DNA of 64,000 nucleotides, from the IMG/VR virus record IMGVR_UViG_3300045988_145476. The stretch is one strand, 5' to 3'. The position numbers were made by a program, and so were the translations under genes. The notes under the pieces are model-generated. The model saw nothing but the letters and a program-made list of their open reading frames with translations, was not told the origin of the DNA and did no database searches. This document shows positions 6,695 through 64,000 of this stretch, in pieces. How positions within the stretch are numbered: the first letter of the stretch is position 1; every line of letters starts with the position of its first letter. Source of the DNA: a virus.

Positions 6695-7468
6695 ATGAAC
6701 GCACTTTTGGGATTACGGAAGTCGATGCCTATTACGGGGGTTATCCCGTTTAAATATCTACTCTATGCGGCTTTACTCTCAAACGTTGTGCAGTATGTAG
6801 AGGATGATACCAAATGGGGAATATTCGTTGAGACAGAAAGTGACCTCTATGATTACTTTCCCGATTGGACTTCTTCGGATGAACGACTTGATGAAGTTTA
6901 CAACGCTTTACAGGAACTCGCTGATGAAGGGTTCATTTTTTTCGATGATGATGAACGAATATTTCTCGGAGAGTTTCGGGGAAGGAAGTTTTTCCCATTT
7001 GAGGCTAAAACCTCTTTGTATAGTGAGGCACATGAACTTCTTGAAGATTCTCTTGAACAGTTCAGTAAAAGTAAGTCAGGAGTATGCCGTTCCCGCAGCA
7101 GGTTTATCCGTTCCAAAATTTCGGATATGCTTGAAAAGGGAATTGAAAAACTTACTCCGGGTGACTTTACGGAACTTCATGGTTACTTGTACGAAATTTA
7201 TACGGGCGGTGAGATATACAATCTCCGTAATAAAGTGGAATACTTCCAGACATCAAACATGCTAAAGGCGTATGATAAATCTACGGTTTTCGCACTTCTT
7301 GTTGAAGGAGTTCTCCACTTTGACAAATATCGGAAGAAAGGTGTTCCCACGCTTACTACGGTAGCCTGTATGAAAGATGATGTAATGCGTTCCCTTACTC
7401 ATAAGGATGCTGGTTCCAAAGAGTATATGCGGGAAATGAGTAGTTCGACCAGCGGTAGTGGATTTTAA
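6695..7468 (+). CDS. hypothetical protein (possible replication initiator; position only)
   Basis: 257-aa ORF immediately upstream of the DnaC-like and DnaB-like genes. No motif recognised with confidence. Confidence 0.45.
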   Translation: MNALLGLRKSMPITGVIPFKYLLYAALLSNVVQYVEDDTKWGIFVETESDLYDYFPDWTSSDERLDEVYNALQELADEGFIFFDDDERIFLGEFRGRKFFPFEAKTSLYSEAHELLEDSLEQFSKSKSGVCRSRSRFIRSKISDMLEKGIEKLTPGDFTELHGYLYEIYTGGEIYNLRNKVEYFQTSNMLKAYDKSTVFALLVEGVLHFDKYRKKGVPTLTTVACMKDDVMRSLTHKDAGSKEYMREMSSSTSGSGF

Positions 7469-7470
7469 GT

Positions 7471-8088
7471 ATGGATAAAGTATCTGATTATTATCTCATG
7501 TGTGGTATAAAGAAAGGATGGCACTCCAAATCACTGGACGATTTTACCAATGATGATGAAGCCCTTGCCCACGTGAAGAATTATTTGCGTAAATTTGCCG
7601 AAGCTAAAGAAAGCGGTGTCGGTCTGTATTTATGGGGAAGTAACGGCACTGGTAAGACACATCTTATGTGCTGTGCGTTTAAAGAACTTATCAGTCGTAA
7701 GCAGACGGTACGGGTATTTACCATAGATGAAATCGTAGACCAGTTCACCGCTTCTTGGTATTCCCCCGAACATAAACGGGAGCTTAACCACATGTTACGG
7801 ACGGTTGATTTTTTGGGAATTGACGAGTTCGGTAAGAATGTCGGTAAAGACGGGGAAGCGATATATCTTCCGGATATGGTGAAACGTATTATGGAGTCAG
7901 TTATCCGCTTTCGTGTACAGATGAAACGACCGATATGGTTTTCTTCTAACACAGACCCTAAGTTTGTTCGGGAAGTGTTCTCCGAGGACATTGCTTCATT
8001 ACTTAATGAAGCGGTTATTGACGTATGTGTTCGTGGAGAGGACTATCGGAAAATTGTTCAACGCAATAATAAAAAGAGGTTCTTATGA
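7471..8088 (+). CDS. DnaC/IstB-like AAA+ helicase-loader ATPase
   Basis: Walker A LWGSNGTGKTHL and Walker B FLGIDEFG. ATGA overlap with the downstream helicase gene. Confidence 0.75.
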   Translation: MDKVSDYYLMCGIKKGWHSKSLDDFTNDDEALAHVKNYLRKFAEAKESGVGLYLWGSNGTGKTHLMCCAFKELISRKQTVRVFTIDEIVDQFTASWYSPEHKRELNHMLRTVDFLGIDEFGKNVGKDGEAIYLPDMVKRIMESVIRFRVQMKRPIWFSSNTDPKFVREVFSEDIASLLNEAVIDVCVRGEDYRKIVQRNNKKRFL

Positions 8089-9353
8089 AAGTAGGCGAAC
8101 AGTTGTTTGTGTCTTGTTTAAAACGTAAAGACCATAAGATTCTCTCCGTTGTACAGAAGCAATGGTTGGACGATGATGAAGCCCGACAGTACCGATGTAT
8201 AATGGAGTATTATCGTGAACATGGTGAGATGATGGGTCTTAGGACGTTCGTTGATAAGTTCGGTTTAGACTCTTCGGGAGCCGATTCCCGACCGGCATAT
8301 TATCTGAACGCTCTTAAAGAACGCTACATTTTCGCAACGGTGTCGGAGAAAGTACCCAAGATACTAAAGGGTATCAAGTCCGACCCCCGTGGAAGATTGT
8401 CGGAGTTCCAGTCCCTTATCGCCATGTTATCGGTGGATGCCGTTGAAAGCAAAGACACTCTTTATTCCGATGATATTGAAACACGTATTGAGGAGTATAA
8501 AAAACGTACTGAAAAAATGGGTGTCACTCATTTAAGTATGGGTGCTCCCGATATGGATGCTACGTTTTACGGGTACAGGAAAAATGACTTGATTACTATC
8601 GGTGGTAAAGCCGGTGTAGGTAAAAGTTGGCTTATGTTATACCTTGCCTTTTTATTGGAAGGTGTAGTGAAGGAACGTTGTGAACTTGGAGAAACGCTTG
8701 GTGATATTTTGTTTATCACTAATGAGATGGGTGAAGATGAAATAAAGGAACGCATTGACTGTTTAAAATTTCATCTTCCCTTTGAAGCTTTTCAAAAAGG
8801 TACTCTTACGGAACGTGAAAGAAAACGTTATTTTCAAGGACTTAAAAAGTTAACCAGTGAGCCGTCAAAGTTGCGTATCGTATATAGCTGCCAAACTATT
8901 GACGAGCTTTCCACATACATAGGTCTTTTCCAACCGTCCGCTGTATTCATAGACGGTTCCTATCTTATGGAAAGCAGGATGCAAGAGGGGTGGGAGAAAA
9001 TCGTGTACATCACCCGTAATTTGAAAAGGCTTGCCAAGAACTTTTCCGTCCCTATTATAAACTCTACGCAGTTAAAGAGGGGTTCTTCCAAGACCGCTTC
9101 CAAATATTCACTGGACGGTCAGGATGATTTTGCCTACTCAAATTCTTACTCTCAGGATTCCGATTTGGCTATCCGTATGTTTCAGGACGCAGATATGAAG
9201 TTCCATGATGTAGTAGGATGCGAGGTTGTAAAGGGAAGACGTGTTAAAGGAAATACTACGTTTGTCTTTCAGAATGACTTGACAAATATGTGCCAATCAC
9301 TAACATTACCGGCCGATGAATCTTCCTCAACACCTGTTGTCCCAGATTTGTAA
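8085..9353 (+). CDS. DnaB-like replicative DNA helicase
   Basis: Walker A GGKAGVGKSWLM, Walker B-like AVFIDGSYLM, and NSTQLKR (DnaB H3-like SQLxR motif). Confidence 0.8.
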   Translation: MKVGEQLFVSCLKRKDHKILSVVQKQWLDDDEARQYRCIMEYYREHGEMMGLRTFVDKFGLDSSGADSRPAYYLNALKERYIFATVSEKVPKILKGIKSDPRGRLSEFQSLIAMLSVDAVESKDTLYSDDIETRIEEYKKRTEKMGVTHLSMGAPDMDATFYGYRKNDLITIGGKAGVGKSWLMLYLAFLLEGVVKERCELGETLGDILFITNEMGEDEIKERIDCLKFHLPFEAFQKGTLTERERKRYFQGLKKLTSEPSKLRIVYSCQTIDELSTYIGLFQPSAVFIDGSYLMESRMQEGWEKIVYITRNLKRLAKNFSVPIINSTQLKRGSSKTASKYSLDGQDDFAYSNSYSQDSDLAIRMFQDADMKFHDVVGCEVVKGRRVKGNTTFVFQNDLTNMCQSLTLPADESSSTPVVPDL

Positions 9354-9387
9354 CTGGACTTGCATTAGTGGCACTGGTACGATATTC

Positions 9388-9705
9388 ATGCAGGATAGAA
9401 CATTTCGTGATGTTTCCGTTGTGGGCTATTTCAAGATGTACCACTGGTGGTTTATTGTTCATAGGGACATAAGCTATCCCGATTGTTATATTGTTTCTGA
9501 GGCGAGTACCGGATGCGCAATCATGGAGTACTGCTATGATACGGTACGGGATGCTGTGGAATCCGCTTTGCCGATAATAAAAGCTAAACGGTATTACTTT
9601 TTCACTTCTACAAAAGAGAAACTGACAAAATACCGTTATAGTTTGCTGAACAGAAATTTAAATATTCAAACTTTGTCAATAGATAGTGCTTTATGGATTT
9701 TATAA
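9388..9705 (+). CDS. hypothetical protein
   Basis: First ATG after the helicase stop within track ORF 9316..9705. No motif recognised. Confidence 0.4.
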   Translation: MQDRTFRDVSVVGYFKMYHWWFIVHRDISYPDCYIVSEASTGCAIMEYCYDTVRDAVESALPIIKAKRYYFFTSTKEKLTKYRYSLLNRNLNIQTLSIDSALWIL

Positions 9706-10058
9706 ATGAGGAAGGCATCATTGCCGGACATTGTACAAAAATTAATTCCGCAAGAACCGGCGGTTGTATGAGTGAACCTTATGTCATTCACTATAATGGC
9801 TCATTCGTATATGAGGGGTTTAAGTTTGTCCTTGGACATAAAAAGAACAGCTCTGAAACTCATTTGTACGAGGTTTCTACCGGGTCTATCGCAGTGCTTA
9901 ATAAAGAAGTTTCCGGCAGACGCATTGAGAGCTATTATAAAAAGCTTCTTGATAAACTTGCCCTACATAAAACCACTATCGGAAAAGTAGTTGCAAGTTA
10001 TTGTTTTAATGAATTAGATTTACCCTTATGGAAAAAAACCGTTTTAATTCTTGGCTGA
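9693..10058 (+). CDS. hypothetical protein
   Basis: 121-aa ORF in the co-directional array. Weak similarity to the previous ORF (VSEASTGCAI vs YEVSTGSIAV). Confidence 0.4.
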   Translation: MDFINEEGIIAGHCTKINSARTGGCMSEPYVIHYNGSFVYEGFKFVLGHKKNSSETHLYEVSTGSIAVLNKEVSGRRIESYYKKLLDKLALHKTTIGKVVASYCFNELDLPLWKKTVLILG

Positions 10059-10447
10059 CTAAAATAGGTGCTGTACTGTGTGCAGCCGTTTTGTTTGCCG
10101 TGCTTGCTTTGGTCGTTGTATGGTGTATTATCGCCCCCGTTGTTAATTACGTGCGAACGCCCAGCGAAATAACCGAAATACGCATGTATTTGCGTTTTTT
10201 CTTGTTCCTTTTTGCTGTTATGGTATTCGGAGTTCTACGCTTGTATAATAGTATAGTGAAGAACACGTTGTTTCTCGTAAAACTTAGAGAAACGCTCGCT
10301 CCTTTCATACGTGCGTTTCCGGGTATTGAGAAAACTGTTCGTACTAATACGAATACCGAGAACTCTTTAAGAGGTGCTCTTGACAGATTATCCTCCTCTA
10401 TTGAGGAAGCAACCGAAATGCTTTCATCTATTAAAGATAAGAAATAA
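10028..10447 (+). CDS. membrane protein (hypothetical)
   Basis: Two hydrophobic helices (IGAVLCAAVLFAVLALVVVWCIIAPVV; LRFFLFLFAVMVFGVL). Confidence 0.45.
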   Translation: MEKNRFNSWLTKIGAVLCAAVLFAVLALVVVWCIIAPVVNYVRTPSEITEIRMYLRFFLFLFAVMVFGVLRLYNSIVKNTLFLVKLRETLAPFIRAFPGIEKTVRTNTNTENSLRGALDRLSSSIEEATEMLSSIKDKK

Positions 10448-11385
10448 TGCCAGTACATCGTTCCAAGCGCTCCCTTATGGATATATTTGCGGATTATTCT
10501 CCTAAGCAAATGACGAACGGACAAATTCGTATGGAGTGTCCGTTCCGTGAGAACCATGAGGACGGTAGTGGACGCATTTCCTTTTTTGTAAGCCCCGATA
10601 AGAACGCTTATCATTGCTTTTCTTGCAACGAGCATGGAAACCTTGTCAACTTGCTTACTACAAAATTCGAGGTGGGGTACTTTGATGCGATGGAACTCGT
10701 TACGATTTCCGATTTCGAGAAAAAGGACTCCCCCGAATTTGAACTTGATTTAAGCTGGCGGTTAATACCGCCCGAAGACTTTCTTAAACGTGGTTTTAAA
10801 AAGGAAACGCTCAAACACTTCCGTATAGGTCTTTCCGAGGATAACAAGATTATCATTCCGTTTTATCGGGACTTCAAAACTCTTACCGAACTTGTAGGTT
10901 ATCAGTCAAGAACCAACTATCCTACACGTGTGGTTCGGAACAGTAAGAATTTCAAAAAGTCTGAGTACTTATATAACTTGGACTTCTCTTATGATTACGT
11001 AATAGTCGTAGAGGGTTATTCCGATGTTATGCGGTTGTACCAGCATGGCTACAATGCGACCGCTTTGCTCGGAGCTGACATGAGTTCGTGGCAGGCTTCC
11101 CAAGTTGCCAAGTTTCCGAAAGTATATCTGGCTCTTGATAATGATAATACAGGTAGACGTGCTACGGAGATTTGCTATCACCAGTTGAAGAATGAAACCG
11201 AGGTTTTGTTAGTTCCTTATACAAGTAAAGACCCTGGCGAGTGTATTTCTCCGAAAGTTTGGGGGAGATTCTTCCACAGTAGTACGGACTATGTTGAATA
11301 TTCAATGGAAATGGCTATCGGTTGGGATGATTATCTTGACATGAAAGATAAAGTGTTACGTGAATTAAAAAATAGAAAAGAATGA
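10447..11385 (+). CDS. DnaG-like DNA primase (zinc finger + TOPRIM)
   Basis: CHC2 zinc finger CPFRENHEDGSGRISFFVSPDKNAYHCFSC. TOPRIM motifs VIVVEGYSDV and LALDNDNTGR. Confidence 0.85.
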   Translation: MPVHRSKRSLMDIFADYSPKQMTNGQIRMECPFRENHEDGSGRISFFVSPDKNAYHCFSCNEHGNLVNLLTTKFEVGYFDAMELVTISDFEKKDSPEFELDLSWRLIPPEDFLKRGFKKETLKHFRIGLSEDNKIIIPFYRDFKTLTELVGYQSRTNYPTRVVRNSKNFKKSEYLYNLDFSYDYVIVVEGYSDVMRLYQHGYNATALLGADMSSWQASQVAKFPKVYLALDNDNTGRRATEICYHQLKNETEVLLVPYTSKDPGECISPKVWGRFFHSSTDYVEYSMEMAIGWDDYLDMKDKVLRELKNRKE

Positions 11386-11975
11386 GATTTATATACGGTT
11401 GGAATGGTCTTGCTCCAGATAAACATATCGTTATAATAAGAGGACTTGATTCGGATTCCTTTTCTTTCTTCACTTCTTTCGTGAAAAGGTACCCTACTAT
11501 CGGGTTGTTTCTTACCAATGATATAGGAGAGGAACGTAATGATGCTTGTTCACCTTTCATAGATGAATCTGTTACGTCTTCTATACATACATTTCTTATT
11601 CGGGAACGACCGGATGATACTTCTGACGCAGACCTCATAAAATTGGTTTTGGAGGATTTTCCTCCTTACAATGAAGACGAAGACCCTATTGTAGAAGAGT
11701 ATTCGTATAAAGACTTTTTAAGTTCAGTGTATGATGTGGCAGAACCAAGAGGTTTCGCAAGTCCCGAAAACTTTCGAGCAAGGTATCTTGTAAACCGTGA
11801 GATGCTCTCCCGTATTCCTGTTGAGGAGAACAAAGAAAGGCTTCTTAGACAGTTTGTTTCTGACTTTTCCAAGACTATTATTGAAAACGCAGAAAAATAT
11901 ATCCGAACGGATATTTCGTATGATGATTGGGGTACAATGGAAGTTAGTTTTACTCTCAGCATAGTTCCGAAATAG
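11382..11975 (+). CDS. hypothetical protein
   Basis: 197-aa ORF with ATGA overlap to the primase gene. No motif recognised. Confidence 0.5.
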   Translation: MRFIYGWNGLAPDKHIVIIRGLDSDSFSFFTSFVKRYPTIGLFLTNDIGEERNDACSPFIDESVTSSIHTFLIRERPDDTSDADLIKLVLEDFPPYNEDEDPIVEEYSYKDFLSSVYDVAEPRGFASPENFRARYLVNREMLSRIPVEENKERLLRQFVSDFSKTIIENAEKYIRTDISYDDWGTMEVSFTLSIVPK

Positions 11976-11978
11976 ACA

Positions 11979-12010
11979 TTTGGAAGTTATCTATTATTTT
12001 TGTATATTTA
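11979..12010 (+). promoter_or_regulatory. predicted Bacteroidota-type promoter
   Basis: CATTTGGAAGT context. TTTG 11979-11982, 20-nt spacer, TATATTTA 12003-12010. Confidence 0.55.
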
Positions 12011-12050
12011 AGTGTATTAGAAAACACATAGTGTTTAACCGTCCAATACA

Positions 12051-12749
12051 ATGGACTTAAAAATTAGTATTATGCCAGTAAGAGAAAGTGGTCGTCGTAG
12101 ACGACATGACGAGGATGAACCTCGCAGTGCTCGTAAAAAAGAGCGTAAACAAGGTTGGGGTGCAGTTGCACAACGCCAAGCGGAAGTTGCTGAAAACAGA
12201 GAAAAAAGTGAAAACGCTGTTCGTGACTTCTGGCTTAAACCGGGTGAAACCGCTATTATCCAGTTCTTACAAGACGAACCGTATTGCTACAATGCGCACA
12301 GCGTAAAGGACAAACGTGGTAACTGGACTACAATTCCTTGTCAGTTGGATACCAGCCGTCATTGTGTACTCTGTTCCGAGGGTTCCAAACAAATTTGGCG
12401 TGCTGCGTTTAAGTTACTCGATTATCGTGGTAGCTGGGATTCTGAAAAGAAGAAGTTCAAACACGACAAGCCGGTCGAAAAGATTTGGAGAGTTGGTACT
12501 ACTATCGCCCAACAGTTGAAACAGATTGTCGATAAAAAAGGTAAGGAACTTACTGAACTCGTTCTTGAAGTTACCCGTACCGGCGAGGGGAAAGACGCAA
12601 CGTACAATTTTGAGATGGCTTTTGACGATGATGATAGACGTATGCGTCCGAAAGATTGGGAAGAAATGCTCCCGTCCGCAGAGGAAATTTGCCAACCGCC
12701 AACGGATGATGAACTTGACGAGATGGGTGTTTCCGTAAGCGATGATTGA
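12051..12749 (+). CDS. putative single-stranded DNA-binding protein
   Basis: Sits directly upstream of the DNA polymerase gene. Basic N-terminus, Cys pairs (CQLDTSRHCVLC), acidic C-terminal tail (DDELDEMGVSVSDD) typical of phage SSBs. Function is inferred. Confidence 0.4.
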   Translation: MDLKISIMPVRESGRRRRHDEDEPRSARKKERKQGWGAVAQRQAEVAENREKSENAVRDFWLKPGETAIIQFLQDEPYCYNAHSVKDKRGNWTTIPCQLDTSRHCVLCSEGSKQIWRAAFKLLDYRGSWDSEKKKFKHDKPVEKIWRVGTTIAQQLKQIVDKKGKELTELVLEVTRTGEGKDATYNFEMAFDDDDRRMRPKDWEEMLPSAEEICQPPTDDELDEMGVSVSDD

Positions 12750-43949: not shown

Positions 43950-43961
43950 AAATTCAAAGGT

Positions 43962-44341
43962 ATGGATAGTAATTTAAAAGTTGGTTCTAATAATGCAGGA
44001 TTGTTTGTTGGTAATATTGAGATATTAGGGGGATAACAGTTGATTATGAAGATGGCTTCTTTAATGATAATGGTTCGGCGTGTATTATAGTTAATAATTC
44101 GCAAGAAACTAAATCTTTTAATATAGATAATAATACAGTTAATGTTGCTTCAAATAGTATTTCCTTTTTATATAGTTATTCCAATTGGAAAATATCTACT
44201 AATACAGATATTATATATGATTTTCGTTTTGGCGATGCTGATAATGGAGAAGCTAATGATACTATTACAGCAAAGGCAAATGATGTATTATTTAATTTTA
44301 CTGGTTATGGTTCTTATTTAGTTTTAGTAATAAAAGAATAA
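43962..44341 (+). CDS. ORF interrupted by a -1 frameshift at a G5 run (programmed slippage, phase variation or pseudogene)
   Basis: ATG 43962 gives 24 codons to TAA 44034-44036. The -1 frame is open only from 44021 and runs 102 ATG-less codons from 44033 to TAA 44339-44341. The frames overlap only across GGGGG 44028-44032. Confidence 0.45.
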
Positions 44342-44352
44342 ATATAATTGAT

Positions 44353-44814
44353 ATGGATAAAGATACGAAAGATATTAACGGGGGGGGGGTAAGAGTAGGT
44401 ATAAGTAATACGAGTATTCGTATTGGAAATCAACTTATTGCTGGCAAAGAATTTGATATTAAACAACTTGTTGATAATATTATATTTGCAGATGATTTAG
44501 TACATAAAGAAATTAATGGACAACTTGTTCTTATTTGCAATCTTAGTAGTATCCCTATTTATTTATATCGAGATTCAGTAAGAATTGAAATAAAAAAACA
44601 ACATATCGAATGGTATTCATTTAGAGCACCTACTGCTATTAGTCTTTTTAATGAAGATAATACTCCAATAAGAGCTATTACACAAAAGGAGTCTATATCC
44701 AATAATTTTGTTATAGAAATAACTGATTCTGTCGTTAATAATGGCGATAGTGTATTTGATATTGCAGATAGTACAGGGATTTTCGGTTTGGTTTGTGTTC
44801 TAATGAATGCGTAA
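44353..44814 (+). CDS. hypothetical protein with a G10 tract at codons 10-12
   Basis: 153-aa AT-rich ORF (MDKDTKDINGGGVRV...). No motif recognised. Confidence 0.5.
   Translation: MDKDTKDINGGGVRVGISNTSIRIGNQLIAGKEFDIKQLVDNIIFADDLVHKEINGQLVLICNLSSIPIYLYRDSVRIEIKKQHIEWYSFRAPTAISLFNEDNTPIRAITQKESISNNFVIEITDSVVNNGDSVFDIADSTGIFGLVCVLMNA
44380..44389 (+). repeat. poly-G homopolymer tract (G10) inside a coding region
   Basis: Ten consecutive G encoding GGG at the 5' end of 44353..44814, within a region of ~22-30% G+C. Confidence 0.9.
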
Positions 44815-44858
44815 AACAATAATATTAATAAAATAACAAAGTGTTTACTTTTTTGATT

Positions 44859-45302
44859 ATGAGAGTAAAAGTATTTTATGAGAATTGGCTCGCTAAAGCC
44901 ATTCTGTTCAAGAACTACGGTACGATGATGTTCTTTGGTTTCATCATTACCAAACATGCAAGTTTGCCTATTGAGGCACAACGTGAGGAGCGTATTCATC
45001 AGCTCCAGTTCAAGGAATGTATGGAAATTGCTACGATACCGGCGGTTTTCCTTTCTCTGTATGTGAGCTGGTGGTGGATGCTTCTTATTCCCACCTTGTA
45101 CTATATAATGTACGGTGTGGAATGGTTTATCAGTTTTATATATCATTTGTTCAAGGACAAACAAATCGGTGATGGGAAAGTGAACGCCAATGCCTATTAT
45201 GCAAGCGCCTTTGAAATGGAAGCTAAGGAGAACCGGAACAGCCAGATTTATCTGCGTTTCCGCAAATGGGGGGCTTGGTTCAAATATTACGGGAAGTTAT
45301 AG
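44859..45302 (+). CDS. membrane protein (hypothetical)
   Basis: ATG 44859 within the track ORF. Hydrophobic segments (MMFFGFIIT, IPAVFLSLYVSWWWMLLIPTLYYIMYGVEWFISFIY). Confidence 0.45.
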   Translation: MRVKVFYENWLAKAILFKNYGTMMFFGFIITKHASLPIEAQREERIHQLQFKECMEIATIPAVFLSLYVSWWWMLLIPTLYYIMYGVEWFISFIYHLFKDKQIGDGKVNANAYYASAFEMEAKENRNSQIYLRFRKWGAWFKYYGKL

Positions 45303-45307
45303 GAGCG

Positions 45308-45339
45308 TTTGCAATATTGCGTAGTATTTCCTATATTTG
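45308..45339 (+). promoter_or_regulatory. predicted Bacteroidota-type promoter
   Basis: TTTG 45308-45311, 20-nt spacer, TATATTTG 45332-45339. 21 nt upstream of the folE ATG. Confidence 0.55.
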
Positions 45340-45359
45340 TATATCAAACTTAAATCATT

Positions 45360-46034
45360 ATGCTGGACAAATCAAAAACGGACCCGAAGTTAGGTAGGGA
45401 AATCCACCAACTTCTACATGACACAGGAATCGAAACCCCTATGATAGACTCAACGTTTCAGACCGAATCTGAAAAGTTTACCGCCATACGGGACAGCTTT
45501 AAGACTATCATGCAAACTCTTGGAATGGACTTGACCGATGATAGCCTTTCGGAAACCCCAAATCGTATTGCCAAGATGTACCTCAACGAAATATTTTGGG
45601 GTCTTGATTACAACAACTTCCCGAAAGTAACCACCATAGACAATAAGATGCAGTATAATTCCATGCTGCTGGAAAGAAACATAAAAGTTTCTTCATTCTG
45701 TGAGCACCACTTTGTGAACTTTGTAGGCAGTGCGTATGTTGCTTACATCCCGCACGGGAAAATAATCGGTTTGTCAAAGATAAACCGCATTGTTGAGTTC
45801 TTCTGCCGCAGGCCACAAGTGCAGGAACGCCTGTGTGAACAAATATGGGCGGCTCTCTGCCATGTACTTGAAACCGAAGACATTGCCGTTCTTATTCGTG
45901 CAGAACATTTCTGCGTTAAGTCAAGAGGAGTTGAGGATATTAATTCCGATACGGTTACTTCCCGTTTGGGCGGTTTGTTCTATGACAGTGAGCAAAGGGA
46001 CGAGTTTTATAAGGTACTCAACTTTGGTGTATGA
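45360..46034 (+). CDS. folE: GTP cyclohydrolase I (FolE)
   Basis: ETPNRIAKMY...SFCEHHFVNFVGSAYVAYIPHGKIIGLSKINRIVEFFCRRPQVQERL matches the type I GCH signature. Confidence 0.9.
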   Translation: MLDKSKTDPKLGREIHQLLHDTGIETPMIDSTFQTESEKFTAIRDSFKTIMQTLGMDLTDDSLSETPNRIAKMYLNEIFWGLDYNNFPKVTTIDNKMQYNSMLLERNIKVSSFCEHHFVNFVGSAYVAYIPHGKIIGLSKINRIVEFFCRRPQVQERLCEQIWAALCHVLETEDIAVLIRAEHFCVKSRGVEDINSDTVTSRLGGLFYDSEQRDEFYKVLNFGV

Positions 46035-49207: not shown

Positions 49208-49565
49208 AGTATTAAGGCAAGCACTGAACGCCTTATTTTATCTCTGCTCTCTAATAGGATTCATGCAGTTCTTATCTCTTATAATGTTTCCTCACTTGAG
49301 ATTGGTTGTTCTCATACTTATTGCCGTTGGAATTTTCCTATGGTGTATTATCTATGCTGTGGAAACCCCAAGCCAGTATTACTACTATGTGGTCGCACAA
49401 GTAGAGGGGAAATTCTTATATACTCGAATAAAGTCCGAAAAGGAGCTTACCTATTGGGGAGCCACTGAACTAATTTCGAGGGAAAGGGAACTCGCTTATC
49501 CTATTATCGTTATTAACATGCAAAGAATAACCGAAGAAGAATATAACTCCGTATATTTTCCCTAA
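49194..49565 (+). CDS. membrane protein (hypothetical)
   Basis: Two hydrophobic helices (ALFYLCSLIGFMQFLSLIMF; LVVLILIAVGIFLWCIIYAV). Confidence 0.5.
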   Translation: MKYAKVLRQALNALFYLCSLIGFMQFLSLIMFPHLRLVVLILIAVGIFLWCIIYAVETPSQYYYYVVAQVEGKFLYTRIKSEKELTYWGATELISRERELAYPIIVINMQRITEEEYNSVYFP

Positions 49566-49960
49566 TGCTTAGCCCCTTGCAAATTCGGATGCTTAAAGGA
49601 CTTGTTTGCCCTTATTGTCACCGACCCACCCAGCTTGTAGACAGTTCCGAAGTGTATGGCCGTTCTTATGGTATGATTTATTTGTGTAGACCTTGTAATG
49701 CGTACGTGGGATGCCACCAAGGAACGACCAACGCTTTGGGACGTGTCGCAAATGCTGAATTGAGGATAGCCAAAAAGTTGGCGCATGAAAAGTTTGACCC
49801 GTTATGGAGAAACGGTTACATGACAAGGCATGAAGCGTACAAGTGGTTGTCTGACAAATTAGGAATCCCTGCCGAATATACCCATATAGGAATGTTTAAT
49901 GTGGACACTTGTCACAAAGTTGTTTCCCTTTGTATAAATTATCTTCAAGAAAAGTTATGA
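49565..49960 (+). CDS. zinc-finger protein (DUF3268-like)
   Basis: CPYCHRPTQLVDSSEVYGRSYGMIYLCRPCNAYVGCH...RVANAELRIAKKLAHEKFDPLW. Confidence 0.5.
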   Translation: MLSPLQIRMLKGLVCPYCHRPTQLVDSSEVYGRSYGMIYLCRPCNAYVGCHQGTTNALGRVANAELRIAKKLAHEKFDPLWRNGYMTRHEAYKWLSDKLGIPAEYTHIGMFNVDTCHKVVSLCINYLQEKL

Positions 49961-50654: not shown

Positions 50655-50686
50655 TTTGGTTTTGTCGTTCCGATAGACTATATTTG
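50655..50686 (+). promoter_or_regulatory. predicted Bacteroidota-type promoter
   Basis: TTTG 50655-50658, 20-nt spacer, TATATTTG 50679-50686. Excludes the track GTG start at 50686. Confidence 0.55.
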
Positions 50687-50715
50687 TGGTGTTGTACAAC
50701 TTAAAAGATTTGATT

Positions 50716-51168
50716 ATGGTAACTATTCAAGAAGAAACAGCAGTTAAAATGCGCAGCTTGCTTGCGTCTTTGACAGTGTTTTATCAAAAGACCCATGTAT
50801 ATCACTGGGATTTGGTCGGTAGAAGTTTCAATCAGCTCCATGCGTTCTTCGAGGAACTCTATAATGAGGCGGTGAAAAATACCGATGCAGTCGCAGAACG
50901 TTTACGACAGGCAAATATACGTACTAACCTATCGTTGACGGAAGCGGTAAGACTTTCCGGAGTAGAAGATGACGTATCTGCCGAGAGTGACGAGGAAATG
51001 GTAACTGATTTGATACGTTCTCTGGCAATATTAACTGCCTTGCAAACGGAAATATTCATGGAAGCCAATGATGCAAACGATTATGTAACGGCTGACCTAA
51101 TGACCCAGCTAACCAAACAGGCCGATTTCAATAGTTGGTTCTTGACCTCTTGGAAAGAAAACAGATAG
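50716..51168 (+). CDS. dps: Dps-family (ferritin-like) DNA-protection protein
   Basis: LLASLTVFYQKTHVYHWDLVGRSFNQLHAFFEELYNEAVKNTDAVAERL matches the Dps helix A/B ferroxidase region (HW...H..FEE). Confidence 0.8.
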   Translation: MVTIQEETAVKMRSLLASLTVFYQKTHVYHWDLVGRSFNQLHAFFEELYNEAVKNTDAVAERLRQANIRTNLSLTEAVRLSGVEDDVSAESDEEMVTDLIRSLAILTALQTEIFMEANDANDYVTADLMTQLTKQADFNSWFLTSWKENR

Positions 51169-51336
51169 TGAAAAAACAGTTTTTGTGTGTTAGTTTAATT
51201 CATTCAGTTAAGAATAGCGGTTCCCGTAGGTTATTTAGTAATGTTTCGTTTCGTATTAGTAGTAAATTGAAATGCACAGGATTTGCGTCCTTATAGACCA
51301 AGCGAGGTCGAACTATTGGAATTAGTTATTCGGTAA

Positions 51337-51367
51337 AGAGAGTGGCTTGTGAAAGTCGCTCTTTTTT
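51337..51367 (+). terminator. rho-independent terminator 170 nt downstream of dps
   Basis: AGAGAGTGGC / GTCGCTCT(TT) stem (two G-U pairs), 8-nt loop, T6 run 51362-51367. Confidence 0.55.
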
Positions 51368-52152
51368 CTGCCTTGTCAGAACGAAAAACGGGTAAATTTA
51401 TCTCTGAAACTAAGACAACCTCATTTTTCTATTTTAAAAAGACCAATTTTTACCCTCTTCCAACAGATACTATCCACATGCAGGAAAAATTTCCTTTTTT
51501 GCAGGGAAAATCTTCCCTTTTCCATAGAAATAACATAACTGCCTAACTAAGCTAACCAATAGAAAGTGTAGGGTAAACCGTACTTCTTTAAGTAATTACG
51601 TATGAACGCTCCCAAAAGAAAACAGATTCGCGGCTGAATGTTTTCTGTACTCTATAATACTTAATACTATATAATACTACATAAAAGATATATGTGGTGG
51701 GTTTCTCTCAAATTACGTAAACTCATGTGGTGGGTAATGGGTAGATAGGTAGAAAAGAAAGGTTATTGTAGATACCGATAGAAAATGGCCCTACGCATAC
51801 GTGTAGACGTGGTTGTGGGCTTATTCTAATTAGCTATTTACGGCAATAAGCATTATTTTCCATGCGTAATTAGCGTTATTTACTGCGTGTAATTAGCTAT
51901 TTTCTCTCTGTACGAGCGTTTATTTTAATTAGAAACGCAGTTATTTTAATTAGAAATACGCTTATTCTAACTGGAAATAGGTTTATTTTTCTGTGCAAAT
52001 AAGCTATTTTAGGCGAAATTTCCATAGATGTTTACAAAAACGCCTATTTTTTAATTTAAGCCGATATTGATTATCAGATAGTTAGCAAAAAATCTCCTAT
52101 GAAAGTATAAAAAACGCAGATTTAGAAATATTTTTACTTTCTAATTAGATTT

Positions 52153-52170
52153 TGGTTATTGCAATAACCA
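52153..52170. repeat. 18-bp perfect palindrome TGGTTATTGCAATAACCA
   Basis: Read directly. The GGTTAT half-site recurs at 53024-53044 and in the spacers of the duplicated promoters at 53120 and 55675. Confidence 0.9.
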
Positions 52171-53119
52171 CAACTACGTATGTAGATAACCAGTTACGCA
52201 GTAGAATTGGTGGTTTATTATGTGTAATTAGTATATAGCTGTATGTAACTATATGTAATTACCGCAGATTTATTATATAACTACCGGATTAATTGTTCCT
52301 GCGTGTTATTTTTCCGTATTAATTAAGTAGGAAATATATTATATAGAGTAATTGGGAGTTATTTTATTTATCGTACGGCGAAAAATTTAATTTTTGGCGG
52401 GATAATTTCTAATTAGCGTATTATAATAAGTAATTAATCACCGTAATAAGGAAAGATTTTATTCTCCGTGCGGATTATTCGTATTATCTACGGGAATATT
52501 ATATGAATTTCTAACTGGAAACCTTTTTACGGCGGAAAATTAAGTAGTAATTATATTAGTTAGCGTATAAAGCGAAAAACAATTCGGCGAATTTTTAATT
52601 TACGGCGGGATAATAGTACGTAGCGTAGACAGGATTTCAGTTCACGGAGCTGAATTTACTGGCAGGGGGGTACCCTTAAATGGAATGCGGCGCACGGTCG
52701 GCTTGGGGTAGTACGGTTAGGTAAGAAAGGAGTGGTGGAAAGTCGGACAATAATTAGTGTATATATGATAACTTCGGAAGTTTGTGTATGTGTGGTAACT
52801 TTGGTGGATACGGGTGGTGTGCGTGTGAAAATCGGTGGTAACGGGTGAAAAACGGGTGATTTGGAAATGTACTTGAAAATACAGGGTGCGGTTGACGTTT
52901 GGTGTGGAAATAAATTGCCGGAAGTTTGGAGTTCTCACTAAATATTAGTATATTAATATATAATTACTTGTATATAGTACTATGAAAGATATAGTGTCCG
53001 GATGTTTGGGATGCTTATCGGTCGGTTATGGTTATTGTAATAACTGGTAGTCGGTACGGTGGTATTTCCGTTAAATAATGTTATTATATAAACAATAACC
53101 AAATATTTTACCGGATATG

Positions 53120-53151
53120 TTTGGTTATCTTATATAAAGTAACTATATTTG
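53120..53151 (+). promoter_or_regulatory. predicted Bacteroidota-type promoter (copy 1 of a 36-nt identical duplicate)
   Basis: TTTG 53120-53123, 20-nt spacer, TATATTTG 53144-53151. 53118-53153 is identical to 55673-55708. Confidence 0.6.
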
Positions 53152-53216
53152 TAATGTGAAAAACGAAACGCACCTATCGGTATATTGCTGACGGGTAACC
53201 AGAAAATCCTACGACA

Positions 53217-53408
53217 ATGAAAACGAAAGAAATCAAGAAGCAACTCGAAATGATGTACAATTTCTATGAAGCGGATGCGCAGCTCTGTGCGATGGCTGAC
53301 ATGAACTACAATTGGGGAATGCATATCGAACAGGGGTACCAAATAATCTCTGAGCGATTAGGAGTCAGTGTTGACGAAGTAAGAAGCGTTGACGAATGTT
53401 GTGAATAA
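53217..53408 (+). CDS. hypothetical small protein
   Basis: 63-aa ORF, the first gene after the ORF-free region. Confidence 0.45.
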   Translation: MKTKEIKKQLEMMYNFYEADAQLCAMADMNYNWGMHIEQGYQIISERLGVSVDEVRSVDECCE

Positions 53409-53971: not shown

Positions 53972-54169
53972 ATGAAAAGGATATGTGATTTTATACACGG
54001 ACGGTTCGGACGCAAAGTTTTGAAACCGGGTTACAGGGAAATATGGGTTCGCACGATGTATTGCCTGCTGCTCGTAATCGGAGTACTGGCTATGGCGGTG
54101 GTCGTGCAAGTGTGGAGCTGGCTGGTCGGTTTCCTTAATGCGATGGCTTGGGGGACTACGGTATGGTGA
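53972..54169 (+). CDS. small membrane protein
   Basis: Hydrophobic segment MYCLLLVIGVLAMAVVVQVWSWLVGFL. Confidence 0.4.
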   Translation: MKRICDFIHGRFGRKVLKPGYREIWVRTMYCLLLVIGVLAMAVVVQVWSWLVGFLNAMAWGTTVW

Positions 54170-54927
54170 CTATCGGTATATTCGGCAGGGAGTACAGGTT
54201 TTGTCGCAGTGTGAAGGCCTCTTACAGTGACCGGCATAATCGTGCGGTGAAACTTGCGGAAAGGTTCGAGAGCCTGTCCGAGAAGTTTGACGGTATGTTC
54301 AGTAGGGGCGGTTGCGGTGAGACGCTCAATTCCCGTCTGGCGCTTGCCTGCAAGATGATGATGTACACCGGCATCCGTATCGGTAACGAGGGAAGTGCCG
54401 AGGGGTATATGACTAAACCGCACCCCAATTCCAAGGAACAGCCCCAGTTCGTGCAGACGTACGGCCTTACCACGCTTCTTCCCCAGCACATGAGTATCAG
54501 ACGTGGGAAAGTGTACCTTAACTTTCTTGGTAAGAGACGTGTGGACAACAGCTTTGTACTTGACGGTAAACTCGCAGGACAGGTTAGGGACATGTCCGGG
54601 TATATCTCCGAGGGGGAAACCCTTTTCGAGATTACTTCCTACGAACTTACCAAGTTCATAAAGAAGTATGTGGGCAGACAGTTTACCCCGAAGGACTTCC
54701 GTACCATGAGGGCTAATATGTACGCATGGGAAAAGTTCGAGGAGATATGCGAAAGGGAGCTGCCCAGTACCAAGACCGAGTATAACGGAGAGGTTAAGGA
54801 AATCGCCACTTATGTCAGCGAGAAACTCAACAATACTCCGGGTGTATGTAAGAAAAGCTATATTGATGAACTGCTTTGGGACGAGTTCAGTGACGCCCGT
54901 CCCGTAACTAAAAGGAATAAAAAATGA
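54163..54927 (+). CDS. type IB DNA topoisomerase (poxvirus/bacterial TopIB-like)
   Basis: TGIRIGNEG, GLTTLLPQHMSI, VYLNFLGKRRVDNSFVL, FTPKDFRTMRAN and LNNTPGVCKKSYID align with the vaccinia/bacterial TopIB R-K-R-(H/N)-Y catalytic blocks. Confidence 0.75.
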   Translation: MVTIGIFGREYRFCRSVKASYSDRHNRAVKLAERFESLSEKFDGMFSRGGCGETLNSRLALACKMMMYTGIRIGNEGSAEGYMTKPHPNSKEQPQFVQTYGLTTLLPQHMSIRRGKVYLNFLGKRRVDNSFVLDGKLAGQVRDMSGYISEGETLFEITSYELTKFIKKYVGRQFTPKDFRTMRANMYAWEKFEEICERELPSTKTEYNGEVKEIATYVSEKLNNTPGVCKKSYIDELLWDEFSDARPVTKRNKK

Positions 54928-55249: not shown

Positions 55250-55603
55250 ATGGGTATTCATTTAAGTAAAAAACACGGGGTAAACCCAAGTATAGAAATT
55301 TGTGCCGTTTGCGGTAAGGGAATTGGAGTTGCATTACTCGGTAGGTTAAAGAATGATGCAGAGGCTCCCGGAGAAGTGTGCCTTGGAAATCTTTGTGACA
55401 CTTGTCAGGGTGTAGTTGATGCCGGCGGTACCCTTATCATAGAGACTGTTGACGGTGAACCATGCAGTAAGAACCCTACCCGTACGGGGCGTATCGTTGG
55501 TATCACGCACGAAGCCGCTGAAAGGCTCTTCCATAGTCACGCACCCGTTGCCTATATGGTACATACCGACTTTACAAATATATTCGGAGAATCATTCAAT
55601 TAG
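55250..55603 (+). CDS. Cys-motif protein (hypothetical)
   Basis: CAVCGKG...CLGNLCDTC pattern. 117 aa. Confidence 0.45.
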   Translation: MGIHLSKKHGVNPSIEICAVCGKGIGVALLGRLKNDAEAPGEVCLGNLCDTCQGVVDAGGTLIIETVDGEPCSKNPTRTGRIVGITHEAAERLFHSHAPVAYMVHTDFTNIFGESFN

Positions 55604-55674
55604 TCGGTATCACTCTGATATAACAGTACTTATTCGGTTATTCCTTATGCGTTAACTATTATTAATACTCTTTG

Positions 55675-55706
55675 TTTGGTTATCTTATATAAAGTAACTA
55701 TATTTG
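55675..55706 (+). promoter_or_regulatory. predicted Bacteroidota-type promoter (copy 2 of the 36-nt duplicate)
   Basis: TTTG 55675-55678, 20-nt spacer, TATATTTG 55699-55706. Confidence 0.6.
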
Positions 55707-55737
55707 TACATGAATTAAAACTAACAGTTGAGGATAT

Positions 55738-61891: not shown

Positions 61892-62428
61892 ATGGCTACA
61901 ATTACAAGAGCGTTTGAGTTCGACGCAGCACATCGTGTAATGAATGAGAAAGTAAAATGCTTCAATTTGCACGGGCACCGTTTTAAAGTGGAAATGACTT
62001 TTGAGTATAACTCCAAGAGTCTTCTTGGATACGCTATTGACTTTAAGGAGATAAAGCGTATTGCCTGCGGATATATTGATGAACATTTAGACCACGCTTG
62101 CCTACTTAACCCCGAAGATACCGAGCTTATTGAGCTGTGCAGAAAACAAAACTGGCGTCTGTGGGTTATGGGAATGGGTGTGTATGGTGACATCAACCCG
62201 TCTGCGGAGAATATTGCTTCCGAGCTTTTCTATATTATCAGACAGTTATTCATTAATGAGCCTTGCGGTTTGCGTCTTACAAACTTACGGCTGTATGAGA
62301 CACCGAATTGCTGGGTTGATTGTTCCCGCATTGATTATGTGGCTACAAATATGTTCCTTGAGAATCTTGGTACATGGAGAAAACAAAAGGGTTCAATGAA
62401 GTACGACATAAGAGAAGACCATGAGTAA
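61892..62428 (+). CDS. queD: 6-carboxy-5,6,7,8-tetrahydropterin synthase QueD
   Basis: FEFDAAHRV...CFNLHGHRFKVEMTF (PTPS/QueD His triad and catalytic region). Confidence 0.85.
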   Translation: MATITRAFEFDAAHRVMNEKVKCFNLHGHRFKVEMTFEYNSKSLLGYAIDFKEIKRIACGYIDEHLDHACLLNPEDTELIELCRKQNWRLWVMGMGVYGDINPSAENIASELFYIIRQLFINEPCGLRLTNLRLYETPNCWVDCSRIDYVATNMFLENLGTWRKQKGSMKYDIREDHE

Positions 62429-64000
62429 AAAGAAAAAAATAACGCCTAAAGAAGAAGGATACGTATTTCCTACCGAGGGTGGTAGAATCGAAGACATCCA
62501 CACCGAAGAACTTGCGGGTAAATCGGTATCGTTTGACGCACACGAAATCACTTCCAAGATTATAGAGTTCGGTAAAATACTTACCGGACTTTCTTTGTAT
62601 AAATACCAAGAAGAAGCGGTGTATGCGATTATTTATTCTATCATAACTTTTTCCGGCGATGTGAAAACAATGCTTTTCAGTCGTCAATCAGGTAAATCGG
62701 AAGCTATGGCTTTTGTTATTGATACGCTTACCGTATTACTTCCGGCCCTTGCCAAAGTGATACCCGATTTGGAGCAATTCTCCAGCGGTTTCCGTATCGG
62801 ATTGTTTGCTCCGCAATCAGACCAAGTTGTTACTACCTATTCTCGTGCAATGACCCGTATAAATTCGGCTAATGCGGAGATGGTTCTTAGTGACCCAGAT
62901 ATTGACGTGTACTTAGAAAGTTCCGCCCGTCTTGAACTTTCAAACGGTTCTTATCTTGCCGGACAGGTTGCGAGTAAACAGTCCAAGATTGAATCAAAGA
63001 CGTATGATTTGGTAATAGTCGAAGAGGCACAGGACGTTGACGACCTTATTGTTCAGAAATGTTATGCTGAGGATACTTTAATAAATTTGCCCTATGGAGA
63101 TTATGCCACTATTAAAGATGTGGTTGAGAGAAAACTTCCCGTGTTAACTCCAGAGGGAAAAATGAAACCGTCTGCATGGCATAATACGGGTGTTCAGGGT
63201 GTTTATAAAATCACATTATGCAACGGCAGGGAGCTTGAAGTAACTTCTCAACATAGACACTTGGTTAGACGTAGGAATGTTAAGGAGTCTTTTGAACTTC
63301 ATACAGATAAACTAAAAGTTGGTGATAGACTTGCTGTTCCCGATTTTATTCCGACATTCGGACATTATGGTGACTATTCTATGGGAGTAGTTATCGGTTT
63401 TTTGCTTGGTGACAGATGCTTTAGCGGAAGTCAAGTGCAGTTCTGCGGTTTTGAAGAAGTTTGGAATTTCGTTTCCCCTCATGTGGAAAAACTCGGCTGT
63501 GTTGCTTTTACCAATTGCTTTAATAAAAACGGTTTATATGAGGGTACTTTCCGAAACGTTGATGGAAAAAATACTCCTAATAAAATAATTGGTCTTTTGA
63601 AAGATTTAGGTCTTTGGGGATTAAAAGGAGAGAATAAGTTTATACCTAATTTACCCTACTCTAAAGAGTTTCTTGTAGGCCTTATTTGCGGACTATTTGA
63701 AAGTGATGGAAGTGTACAGGCTCTTAAAAAGGGTAACATACGATATGCGTCAATTTCTAAGAAGTTGGTTTATGGTTTAAGCCTTCAATTGCAAAAGTTT
63801 GGAATACACTGCTCTATATCTGTAAAGAGTAACATTGGTAAAGGAGTGTATGAAAATACCAAGCCCTTATATGAATTGCATATTAGGGATAACATTTCGG
63901 TTATACGTTTTTGTGAGAATTTTCGCCTTGTAACAAAAAATGAGAAGCTCGATAAGGCTAAGTTAATTGCTGAAAGAATTAATAAGAAAGCCGGAGCTAC
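62421..64000 (+). CDS. terL: terminase large subunit (partial; continues beyond the window), interrupted by an intein
   Basis: Not in the ORF track because no stop is reached. My translation from ATG 62421 is open to the window end. Walker A LFSRQSGKSEA; Walker B YDLVIVEEAQD. Overlaps queD by 8 nt. Confidence 0.8.
   Translation, partial: MSKKKKITPKEEGYVFPTEGGRIEDIHTEELAGKSVSFDAHEITSKIIEFGKILTGLSLYKYQEEAVYAIIYSIITFSGDVKTMLFSRQSGKSEAMAFVIDTLTVLLPALAKVIPDLEQFSSGFRIGLFAPQSDQVVTTYSRAMTRINSANAEMVLSDPDIDVYLESSARLELSNGSYLAGQVASKQSKIESKTYDLVIVEEAQDVDDLIVQKCYAEDTLINLPYGDYATIKDVVERKLPVLTPEGKMKPSAWHNTGVQGVYKITLCNGRELEVTSQHRHLVRRRNVKESFELHTDKLKVGDRLAVPDFIPTFGHYGDYSMGVVIGFLLGDRCFSGSQVQFCGFEEVWNFVSPHVEKLGCVAFTNCFNKNGLYEGTFRNVDGKNTPNKIIGLLKDLGLWGLKGENKFIPNLPYSKEFLVGLICGLFESDGSVQALKKGNIRYASISKKLVYGLSLQLQKFGIHCSISVKSNIGKGVYENTKPLYELHIRDNISVIRFCENFRLVTKNEKLDKAKLIAERINKKAGA
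63060..64000 (+). mobile_element. intein with LAGLIDADG homing-endonuclease domain in TerL (C-terminal end outside the window)
   Basis: After ...DDLIVQK the sequence switches to CYAEDTLINLPYGDY (Cys codon 63060-63062). Hint-like block ITLCNGRELEVTSQHRHLV. LAGLIDADG blocks VIGFLLGDRCF and LICGLFESDGSV. Confidence 0.7.

Follow-up and report, generated by a model that had tools for sequence, protein, structure and literature searches.

The stretch of DNA analyzed here, IMG/VR virus record IMGVR_UViG_3300045988_145476 (64,000 nucleotides [nt]; referred to below as the window), carries almost all of its credible genes on the + strand, and a 2,048-nt part of it, positions 51169 to 53216, carries none. 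This gap runs from the stop codon of a Dps/ferritin-like gene (50686 to 51168) to the ATG of a gene for a 63-amino-acid (aa) protein (53217), which is followed by genes for 180- and 65-aa proteins and for a type IB topoisomerase (TopIB). The Dps/ferritin-like gene (Pfam E value, 1.7e-15) is an unusual one for a phage. An earlier note on this DNA, made from its letters alone, had pointed to the gap as a region free of open reading frames (ORFs) and dense in short repeats. We established that it is a conserved, multipart cis-acting region between a terminator and an early promoter.

Judged by its sequence, the window is a genome like that of Bacteroides phage BS162P1 (OP172706.1; 88,902 bp), which is 99.7% identical to the region and was deposited as a "partial genome" with Bacteroides salyersiae as the host (window position = OP172706.1 record position + 52,335). 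The BS162P1-like genome is ~88.8 kb in size with all genes on one strand, and an ENA contig of 88,946 bp (L004) is identical to the window across the 16.5 kb compared. Past the gap, the small genes and the TopIB gene are followed by genes for TerL (with an intein), the portal, and the major head protein, then by tail genes, and then by genes for a D10-like helicase, a DnaC-like loader, and DnaB. Genes for primase, PolA, and a UvsX-like recombinase come next; ~35 kb of small unknown ORFs then leads to the Dps-like gene and back to the gap. Because gene content and order match published descriptions, the genome fits the uncultured "Flandersviridae"/Gubaphage family, whose members have colinear genomes of ~85 kb and Bacteroides hosts (PMC8008677, PMC9610469, PMC7895897). 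The family shares with the window a Bacteroides host and a structural block followed by DnaB/DnaG/PolA and then by ~20 kb of unknown small ORFs; its median genome size is 85.2 kb, compared with 88.8 kb here (Benler et al. 2021, PMC8008677; Camarillo-Guerrero et al. 2021, PMC7895897). The noncoding region is not described in PMC8008677, PMC9610469, or PMC7895897, nor are an origin and termini described in PMC8008677 or PMC7895897, and our literature search found no paper that names BS162P1.

The bounds of the ORF-free region were exact in the earlier note, and the region is the sole gap of at least 300 nt in the 88.8-kb genome without a + strand ORF of 50 aa. The two low-complexity frames that the note had listed within it (65 aa on the + strand and 73 aa on the − strand) both exist. 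Coding under an alternative genetic code, which the note had raised against its own proposal, was checked by recoding: the longest frame in the gap is 97 aa when TAG is read through and 105 aa when TGA is read through, and a hidden or recoded gene was thereby ruled out. We found no tRNA or tmRNA in the gap and no Rfam match there, either at the gathering threshold or at an E value of ≤1. An exact 30-mer from the region was present in two JGI contigs, no IMG/VR contigs, and no GTDB contigs; hence, nothing points to a copy on a prophage or plasmid among the reference genomes.

Nine copies of TAATTAG start on the + strand of the gap, at 51827, 51867, 51890, 51926, 51947, 52142, 52225, 52410, and 52751, each exactly where the earlier note had placed it. 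The + strand has no copy in the other 62 kb of the window and none in the rest of the 88.8-kb genome. In Markov simulations of the gap itself, 0.65 to 1.4 copies were expected and none of 2,000 simulations reached 9; the probability that any 7-mer would reach nine copies in such AT-rich DNA was 0.014 to 0.066. Counted on both strands, the whole window has 15 copies, compared with 16 expected by shuffling, and 12 of the 15 lie within 3% of the window. The anomaly is therefore one of concentration and not of number. Since TAATTAG contains stop codons in two of the three frames, it is in any case disfavored in + strand genes. The heptamer is also directional: six of the copies are on the + strand only, three are part of the palindrome CTAATTAG, and none is on the − strand only. 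Five of the copies belong to a larger array of 11 YTATTY units (51821 to 52044), which are separated by gaps of 13 to 40 nt; 7 of the 10 gaps are 21 or 23 nt, and autocorrelation at a lag of 21 is 0.44 against a background of ~0.27. All three of the 20- to 21-nt tandem arrays of the window are inside the gap, and no other repeat cluster was found anywhere in the genome. The remaining repeats described in the earlier note were likewise where it had put them: ATGTGGTGGGT occurs twice (51692 and 51725), GCAGGAAAAATTTCC (51480) and GCAGGGAAAATCTTCCC (51501) form a tandem pair that TRF also reports as a 21-nt tandem (51479 to 51521; period 21, 2.0 copies, 86% matches), TAATACT occurs three times (51655, 51662, and 51672), and the 18-bp perfect palindrome is TGGTTATTGCAATAACCA (52153 to 52170).

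Single-protein queries of IMG/VR returned no close relatives. Relatives were found using a two-sequence profile of a 487-aa protein encoded 3.5 kb downstream of the gap, which retrieved 15 IMG/VR loci at 42 to 47% identity. All 15 have a + strand ORF-free gap of 0.5 to 2.1 kb, located 3 to 6 kb upstream of the gene for the 487-aa protein, and the gap is also present in related IMG/VR genomes of 78 to 85 kb. TAATTA(G/C) is concentrated in the gap in most of these loci. In the window and in loci L019 and L029, the motif takes the form TAATTAG, often as CTAATTAG; the MT835482 clade and L030/31 have TAATTAC instead, and the concentration is weak or absent in L018 and L020. Because the related genomes range from 35% to 49% GC, base composition does not explain the pattern. 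The earlier note had proposed looking for the repeat units in related genomes, and we regard this recurrence of the gap and of the motif concentration in distant relatives as stronger evidence than any single-sequence statistic.

At closer range, repeat units in the gap of the MT835482 clade (88 to 95% identity) are gained and lost through insertions and deletions, while certain blocks between them stay invariant. The members of this clade (L015, which is MT835482.1, at positions 1 to 1560; L021 to L028; and L032) have two small paralogous ORFs (82 and 87 aa) inserted in the noncoding region and a (CA)n run at its left edge; the sequence examined contained no TopIB gene. TAATTAG is intact in 197 of 198 instances across 22 strains of the species to which the window belongs, the five copies of the main array are all intact in every strain, and the 18-bp palindrome is invariant. 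Strain-level diversity of the gap as a whole is ordinary, being neither unusually low nor unusually high. The 21-nt phasing is not kept in relatives, which have lags of 12 to 14, 29, etc., barely above those of shuffled sequences.

The core of the earlier note, that the gap is a real, functional noncoding array of repeats of a protein-binding type, thus stands and is strengthened by conservation of position and motif across the family; the gap is not an unannotated or recoded gene or a known RNA. It most likely holds signals for genome ends or packaging, for the start of replication, or for early gene switching. Its features are listed in Table 1.

Table 1. Features of the gap, from left to right (window coordinates)
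Position	Strand	Feature	Remarks
51332–51372	+	Intrinsic terminator closing the upstream gene block	13-bp hairpin, then U-run UUUUUUCU
51479–51521	+	Tandem pair of 21-nt units with inner inverted repeats	GGAAA..TTTCC and GGGAA..TTCCC
51648–51735	+	Short direct repeats: TAATACT three times, then ATGTGGTGGGT twice	ATGTGGTGGGT copies 33 nt apart
51821–52055	+	Main array: 11 YTATTY units with ~21-nt phasing, 5 of them with TAATTAG, in one orientation	D1 family; TRF period 21
52142–52170		CTAATTAG, then perfect 18-bp palindrome TGGTTATTGCAATAACCA	Operator-like
52190–52450		AT-richest part, with TAATTAG at 52225 and 52410	10-nt repeats at 52219–52258; contig-end site at 52336–52390
52373–52616	+	Second oriented repeat set, (C/G)GGCG(G) plus A/T-run, e.g., ACGGCGAAAAAT	Families D7 and D15
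52647–52714	+	Conserved element: GAGCTGAA ... G-run/C-run ... CCCTTAAATG, 23 nt, GGGTAGTAC	
52751–52757	+	Ninth, isolated TAATTAG	Intact in 22 of 22 strains
52780–52900	+	G/T-rich block with GGTGG and ACGGGTGA repeats	20-nt tandem repeat at 52810–52858 (TRF)
53026–53045		Second operator-like near-palindrome, GGTTATTGTAATAACT	Inverted pair I5; 75 nt upstream of the promoter
53120–53151	+	Bacteroides-type promoter, TTTG-N20-TATATTTG, of the first gene past the gap	

The terminator at the left end of the gap folds at −20.2 kcal/mol, compared with a mean of −10.4 for shuffled sequences (z = −4.0); a simple consensus scan overlooked it because of its G-U pairs. The block of short direct repeats that follows varies by strain, with an extra 32-nt unit in 1 of 22 strains and other insertions or deletions at 51577 to 51729. 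GC content is 0.24 to 0.30 across about 52065 to 52450, a level of AT richness equaled by at least 30 other stretches of the window. The second oriented repeat set has four copies on the + strand and none on the − strand; it is found on the + strand only, inside the gap, in 9 of 10 clade representatives, and L020 is without a copy in its gap. The example ACGGCGAAAAAT is also present in L018 and in the MT835482 clade. L019, L020, and L029 likewise have a GGTGG-rich block after the conserved element. GC skew reaches the maximum for the window (+0.33) at 52001 to 53000.

The two operator-like sites resemble each other: GGTTATTGYAATAACC has 10 matches with ≤3 mismatches, compared with 1.6 expected, and the only sites with 0 to 2 mismatches are those at 52154 and 53030, the near-palindrome GGTTATTGTAATAACT differing from the site at 52154 by 1 or 2 mismatches. 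The "strong promoter" that the earlier note had seen after the region proved to be the Bacteroides-type promoter at 53120, which has GGTTAT and TAAC half-sites within its −33 and −12 parts. TTTG-N20-TATATTTG has 11 + strand matches in the window, mostly in short intergenic gaps. An array of host-type promoters within the gap was ruled out, since there is no other such match within 51169 to 53100 and a σ70 consensus scan gave fewer matches than did shuffled sequences. Promoter-like blocks with the same AATAACTAnnTTTG end were found in relatives. The promoter block itself, TTTGGTTATCTTATATAAAGTAACTATATTTG (34 to 40 nt), has near-exact duplicates 2.5 kb apart, at 53118 to 53156 and 55672 to 55711 (with 34 nearly identical nt at 55678), and k=31 Logan contigs of several samples break exactly at both copies. 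The 63-aa protein encoded just past the promoter appears, from reading its sequence, to have a helix-turn-helix-like C terminus. Several strains of the species lack all or part of its gene through three different deletions (53154 to 53406), and the gene is missing in L005.

The conserved element consists of GAGCTGAA, a G-run/C-run, CC(C/A)TTAAATG, a spacer of exactly 23 nt (22 nt in L030), and GGG(T/C)A; its CCCTTAAATG-N23-GGGTAG part is at 52673 to 52714. It occurs once in the 88.8-kb genome and once per locus, always in the gap, in the window and in L018, L019, L020 (as CCATTAAATG), L029, L030/31, L044, L047, and L133. A loose search of IMG/VR with CCCTTAAATG-N20-26-GGGTA returned mostly chance matches, the true relatives being only L044, L047, L108, and L133. 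The three base pairs predicted in the element are invariant, no compensatory change was observed, and its fold has a z score of +0.78; a structured RNA was rejected on these grounds. An in-frame "PLN...G*" peptide running across the element was also dropped, as the upstream frame is unconserved and the stop codon is absent in L018 and L030. Since the element occurs once in the genome and once per locus and is without an RNA-structure signal, it looks like a single site recognized by a protein.

The interpretation of the gap that we favor, tentatively and at somewhat less than an even chance, is a concatemer junction or genome-end region like that of phage T7. The gap would then be the sole junction of a unidirectionally transcribed genome, where the right and left ends of virion DNA meet in a concatemer or a circular assembly. 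Transcription of the long upstream block would end at the terminator. The one-directional arrays (TAATTAG/YTATTY, GGCG-A/T, and GGTGG) would load phage proteins that mark the junction, putatively terminase or end-recognition factors, and a cut near the junction would give rise to a short direct terminal repeat. After injection, host RNA polymerase would start early transcription at the 53120 promoter, under control exerted via the GGTTATTG(Y)AATAACC palindromes. The same gap may also house an origin of replication, and the conserved element has the look expected of a single recognition or cleavage site. We infer that end or packaging signals are in the gap, and the proposed binding proteins and cut site are inferences too. 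Because this is the sole gap of at least 300 nt in a one-strand genome, fixed ends could sit in it without cutting a gene. Terminal regions are typically of this kind, ~2 kb without genes and with several repeat arrays that differ from one another, and known phage iteron origins are smaller.

The architecture matches that of T7 in several respects. Both genomes have codirectional genes and one large noncoding junction (1,163 nt in circularized T7 and 2,048 nt here). Counted with the same script, T7 has a one-strand heptamer of its own, CCTAAAG, with 13 copies on the + strand and none on the − strand, compared with nine copies of TAATTAG here. Host promoters A1 to A3 precede the first early gene of T7, as a host-type promoter precedes a small first gene here. 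The two differ in that the terminal repeat is established in T7 and in that repeats are 13 or 26 nt apart in T7 and 21 to 40 nt apart here; moreover, the phage studied here is of the myovirus type, has an 88.8-kb genome in which no T7-type RNA polymerase was identified, and has no sequence similarity to T7. Its nearest characterized TerL relatives, those of Streptomyces phages BRock and LuckySocke (31% identity; E values, 1e-33 to 1e-35), come from genomes with exact direct terminal repeats of 221 and 344 bp within noncoding ends of ~0.9 to 1.1 kb, although these phages have distant hosts, ~113-kb genomes, and genes on both strands.

Several observations weigh against a T7-like junction. Here, 9 kb separates the junction from the terminase gene downstream, whereas in T7 that gene is just upstream of the junction, and the gene order past the gap (small genes, structural genes, and then replication genes) differs from the temporal order of T7. 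The TerL identity to terminal-repeat phages is only 31%, and no strong heptamer array in a single direction is present at the BRock and LuckySocke junctions. All of the long metagenome contigs, of which there are more than 30, cross the gap, which fits collapsed terminal repeats and a circularly permuted genome equally well. Ackermannviridae are thought to package DNA by the headful mechanism. It is beside this family that Benler et al. (PMC8008677) place the TerL of the Flandersviridae.

Contig ends provide a candidate position for the genome ends. Ends of contigs from three independent assemblies fall within 14 nt of one another: OP172706.1 starts at 52336, L008 (ENA NODE_5624) starts at 52340, and L182 (ENA NODE-3639) ends at 52349, its end being followed by the start of a Nextera adaptor. 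OP172706.1 also has an exact 55-nt terminal overlap, with ends mapping to 52336 and 52390. Among the contig ends considered, the cluster at 52336 to 52349 was the only one left without an explanation. Logan breaks at 53124 and 53147 were ruled out as termini, being explained by the duplicated promoter, and the start of MT835482 at the left edge of the gap was set aside because it adjoins the (CA)n run. The ends at 52336 to 52390 could stem from the DNA itself (a physical end or a nick), from a Tn5 hot spot, or from the behavior of the assembler. Because 55 nt is a default SPAdes k value, the overlap in OP172706.1 is probably an assembly artifact. A Tn5 hot spot could account for the cluster, given the 9- to 10-nt overlap between L008 and L182 and the adaptor start that follows L182, and so could a coverage trough.

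The earlier note had listed an origin, a partition or packaging signal, genome termini, a binding array for a helix-turn-helix protein, and a noncoding RNA as possible functions; termini and an origin now lead. The latter two could be compatible, using different subelements of the gap. An iteron-type origin is the main rival to the T7-like junction, though we think it somewhat less likely. A phage initiator would bind the repeats at 51821 to 52055 and the scattered TAATTAG copies, bend the DNA, and open the AT-rich stretch at 52190 to 52450, where the DnaC-like loader (7471 to 8088) would place the DnaB-type helicase (8085 to 9353). One-orientation direct repeats of ~21 nt beside AT-rich DNA are what the origins of phage λ (ori), plasmid P1 (oriR), and R6K (γ) have, and the gap has them as well: 11 one-directional units at ~21 nt, equivalent to two helical turns, a further 21-nt tandem pair at 51479, and an AT-richest part 150 to 400 nt downstream of the main array. 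The phage encodes DnaB, a DnaC-like loader, primase, and PolA, so a helicase-loading site is needed, and the genome has no other repeat cluster to serve as an origin. A clade-specific core (TAATTAG in the window, L019, and L029; TAATTAC in the MT835482 clade and L030) would be expected of a coevolving initiator and its site. Unlike those of known iteron origins, however, the units here are degenerate, with a core of 6 to 7 nt, the motif is scattered over 900 nt, and there is no adjacent initiator gene, DnaA-box cluster, or skew signal. Only 2 of 29 DnaA-box-like sites are in the gap. The GC-skew check proposed in the earlier note did not point to an origin: skew stays positive to the left and right of the gap and in all 1-kb windows from position 4001 onward, with no inflection and a steady cumulative rise through the region, a test that is weak in a genome with all genes on one strand. 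The absence of the 21-nt phasing in relatives and the size of the gap, much larger than that of known phage iteron origins, also argue against an origin of this kind. No initiator was identified. A conserved 257-aa protein encoded just upstream of the loader (6695 to 7468) belongs to no known family and has faint winged-helix hints; its model was good (pLDDT, 83.5), but it was rejected as the initiator, as no fold match was significant, the best being regulators of the GntR, FadR, and IclR types at E values of 0.1 to 1 (best Foldseek E value, 0.1). In lambdoid phages, the origin is within the initiator gene, whereas the initiator-like gene position here is 44 kb from the gap.

An array that controls transcription or organizes DNA by binding phage or host proteins, acting in insulation of the two gene blocks, in an early/late switch at the 53120 promoter, or in plasmid-like partition in a carrier state, with no direct role in replication start or packaging, seems unlikely. 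The operator-like palindromes at 52153 and 53030, the half-sites inside the promoter, the duplication of the promoter block at 55675, and the possible helix-turn-helix in the 63-aa product of the first gene would all suit such control, and a P1-like plasmid state has been raised for the family by Benler et al. (PMC8008677). Yet operators would account for only ~100 nt of a 2-kb region that has four distinct arrays, several strains have lost the 63-aa gene while keeping the arrays intact, TAATTAG is absent from all other promoter regions of the genome, and no partition genes are known in the family (PMC8008677). A long noncoding RNA or small-RNA locus, expressed from phage-specific promoters in the gap, is very improbable, and this part of the earlier note's list is disfavored. 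The position between a terminator and a promoter, TATAAT-like repeats at 51648 to 51684, and a highly conserved block with inverted repeats in the MT835482 clade are compatible with such a locus, but the Rfam searches at both thresholds were negative, the sole cross-clade element has neither compensatory changes nor a stability signal, no host-type promoter is present within 51169 to 53100, and repeat units come and go as the sequence evolves.

The pentamer at which poxvirus type IB topoisomerases cleave, CCCTT (PMC2666729), opens the CCCTTAAATG-N23-GGGTAG part of the conserved element in eight of nine lineages, and L020 has CCATT. The TopIB gene (54148 to 54927), 1.4 kb downstream of the element, is, like the Dps-like gene, unusual for a phage and encodes a short type IB topoisomerase (254 to 259 aa) related to the Deinococcus radiodurans and variola enzymes, the closest solved homologue being that of D. 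radiodurans. Where the flanking sequence allowed a check, the element and the TopIB gene were found together in seven lineages (the window, L018, L019, L020, L029, L030/31, and L047), and both are missing in the MT835482 clade, which represents one lineage only. As a long shot, CCCTT|AAATG-N23-GGGTAG may be a dedicated target of the phage's own poxvirus-like TopIB, which would nick the DNA site-specifically there, or leave a covalent DNA-protein end, and thereby start replication or form and process the genome ends. We give this a low probability because of the CCATT in L020, the 145 occurrences of CCCTT in the genome, the joint absence being confined to one lineage, and the kinship with the D. 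radiodurans enzyme, which has been reported not to prefer CCCTT (PMC2666729). If true, it would be a role for TopIB that is unprecedented in phages.

Other features of the window lie outside the gap. Zinc-ribbon proteins are encoded at 49565 to 49960 and 55250 to 55603. The TerL gene begins at ~62421 and runs past the end of the window (record positions 9334 to 12057); it encodes 907 aa in total and contains an intein with a LAGLIDADG endonuclease domain. An apparent gap at 62428 to 63406 was ruled out as being part of this gene. A second noncoding region suspected at 43950 to 45360 was likewise ruled out, being low-GC coding DNA. This block of small ORFs (43950 to 45300) is 29% GC in a 40% GC genome, includes a G10 homopolymer (44381 to 44390), and may be recently acquired or phase variable. 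A GTP cyclohydrolase I gene (45360 to 46034) and a QueD/PTPS-like gene (61892 to 62428) suggest a DNA modification pathway of the 7-deazaguanine type. In one 426,897-bp ENA scaffold (L185; ERZ28661042 scaffold_4), phage sequence is found at the scaffold start; either the scaffold is a chimera or the phage DNA is physically joined to a replicon of the host.

Flandersviridae/Gubaphages have been reported to be among the most prevalent human gut phages (PMC8008677, PMC7895897). The species studied here is itself found extremely often in public metagenomes of the gut: an index of public assemblies lists its Dps-like protein in 1,024 blocks, of which 412 include contigs of 50 to 200 kb. Signals for replication, packaging, and timing in these phages have nowhere else in the genome to sit than in the gap, which is conserved across the family. 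The map given here supplies coordinates for a terminator, three repeat arrays, a unique conserved site, operators, and a promoter, as well as a candidate end position at 52336 to 52390. It tells annotators where to open circular assemblies of the family and why assemblies break there. The alternatives are testable, since the gap is carried by a cultured isolate, BS162P1, that grows on B. salyersiae. We conclude that the gap adds a new case, shared across the family, to a known type of element, the phage noncoding control region.

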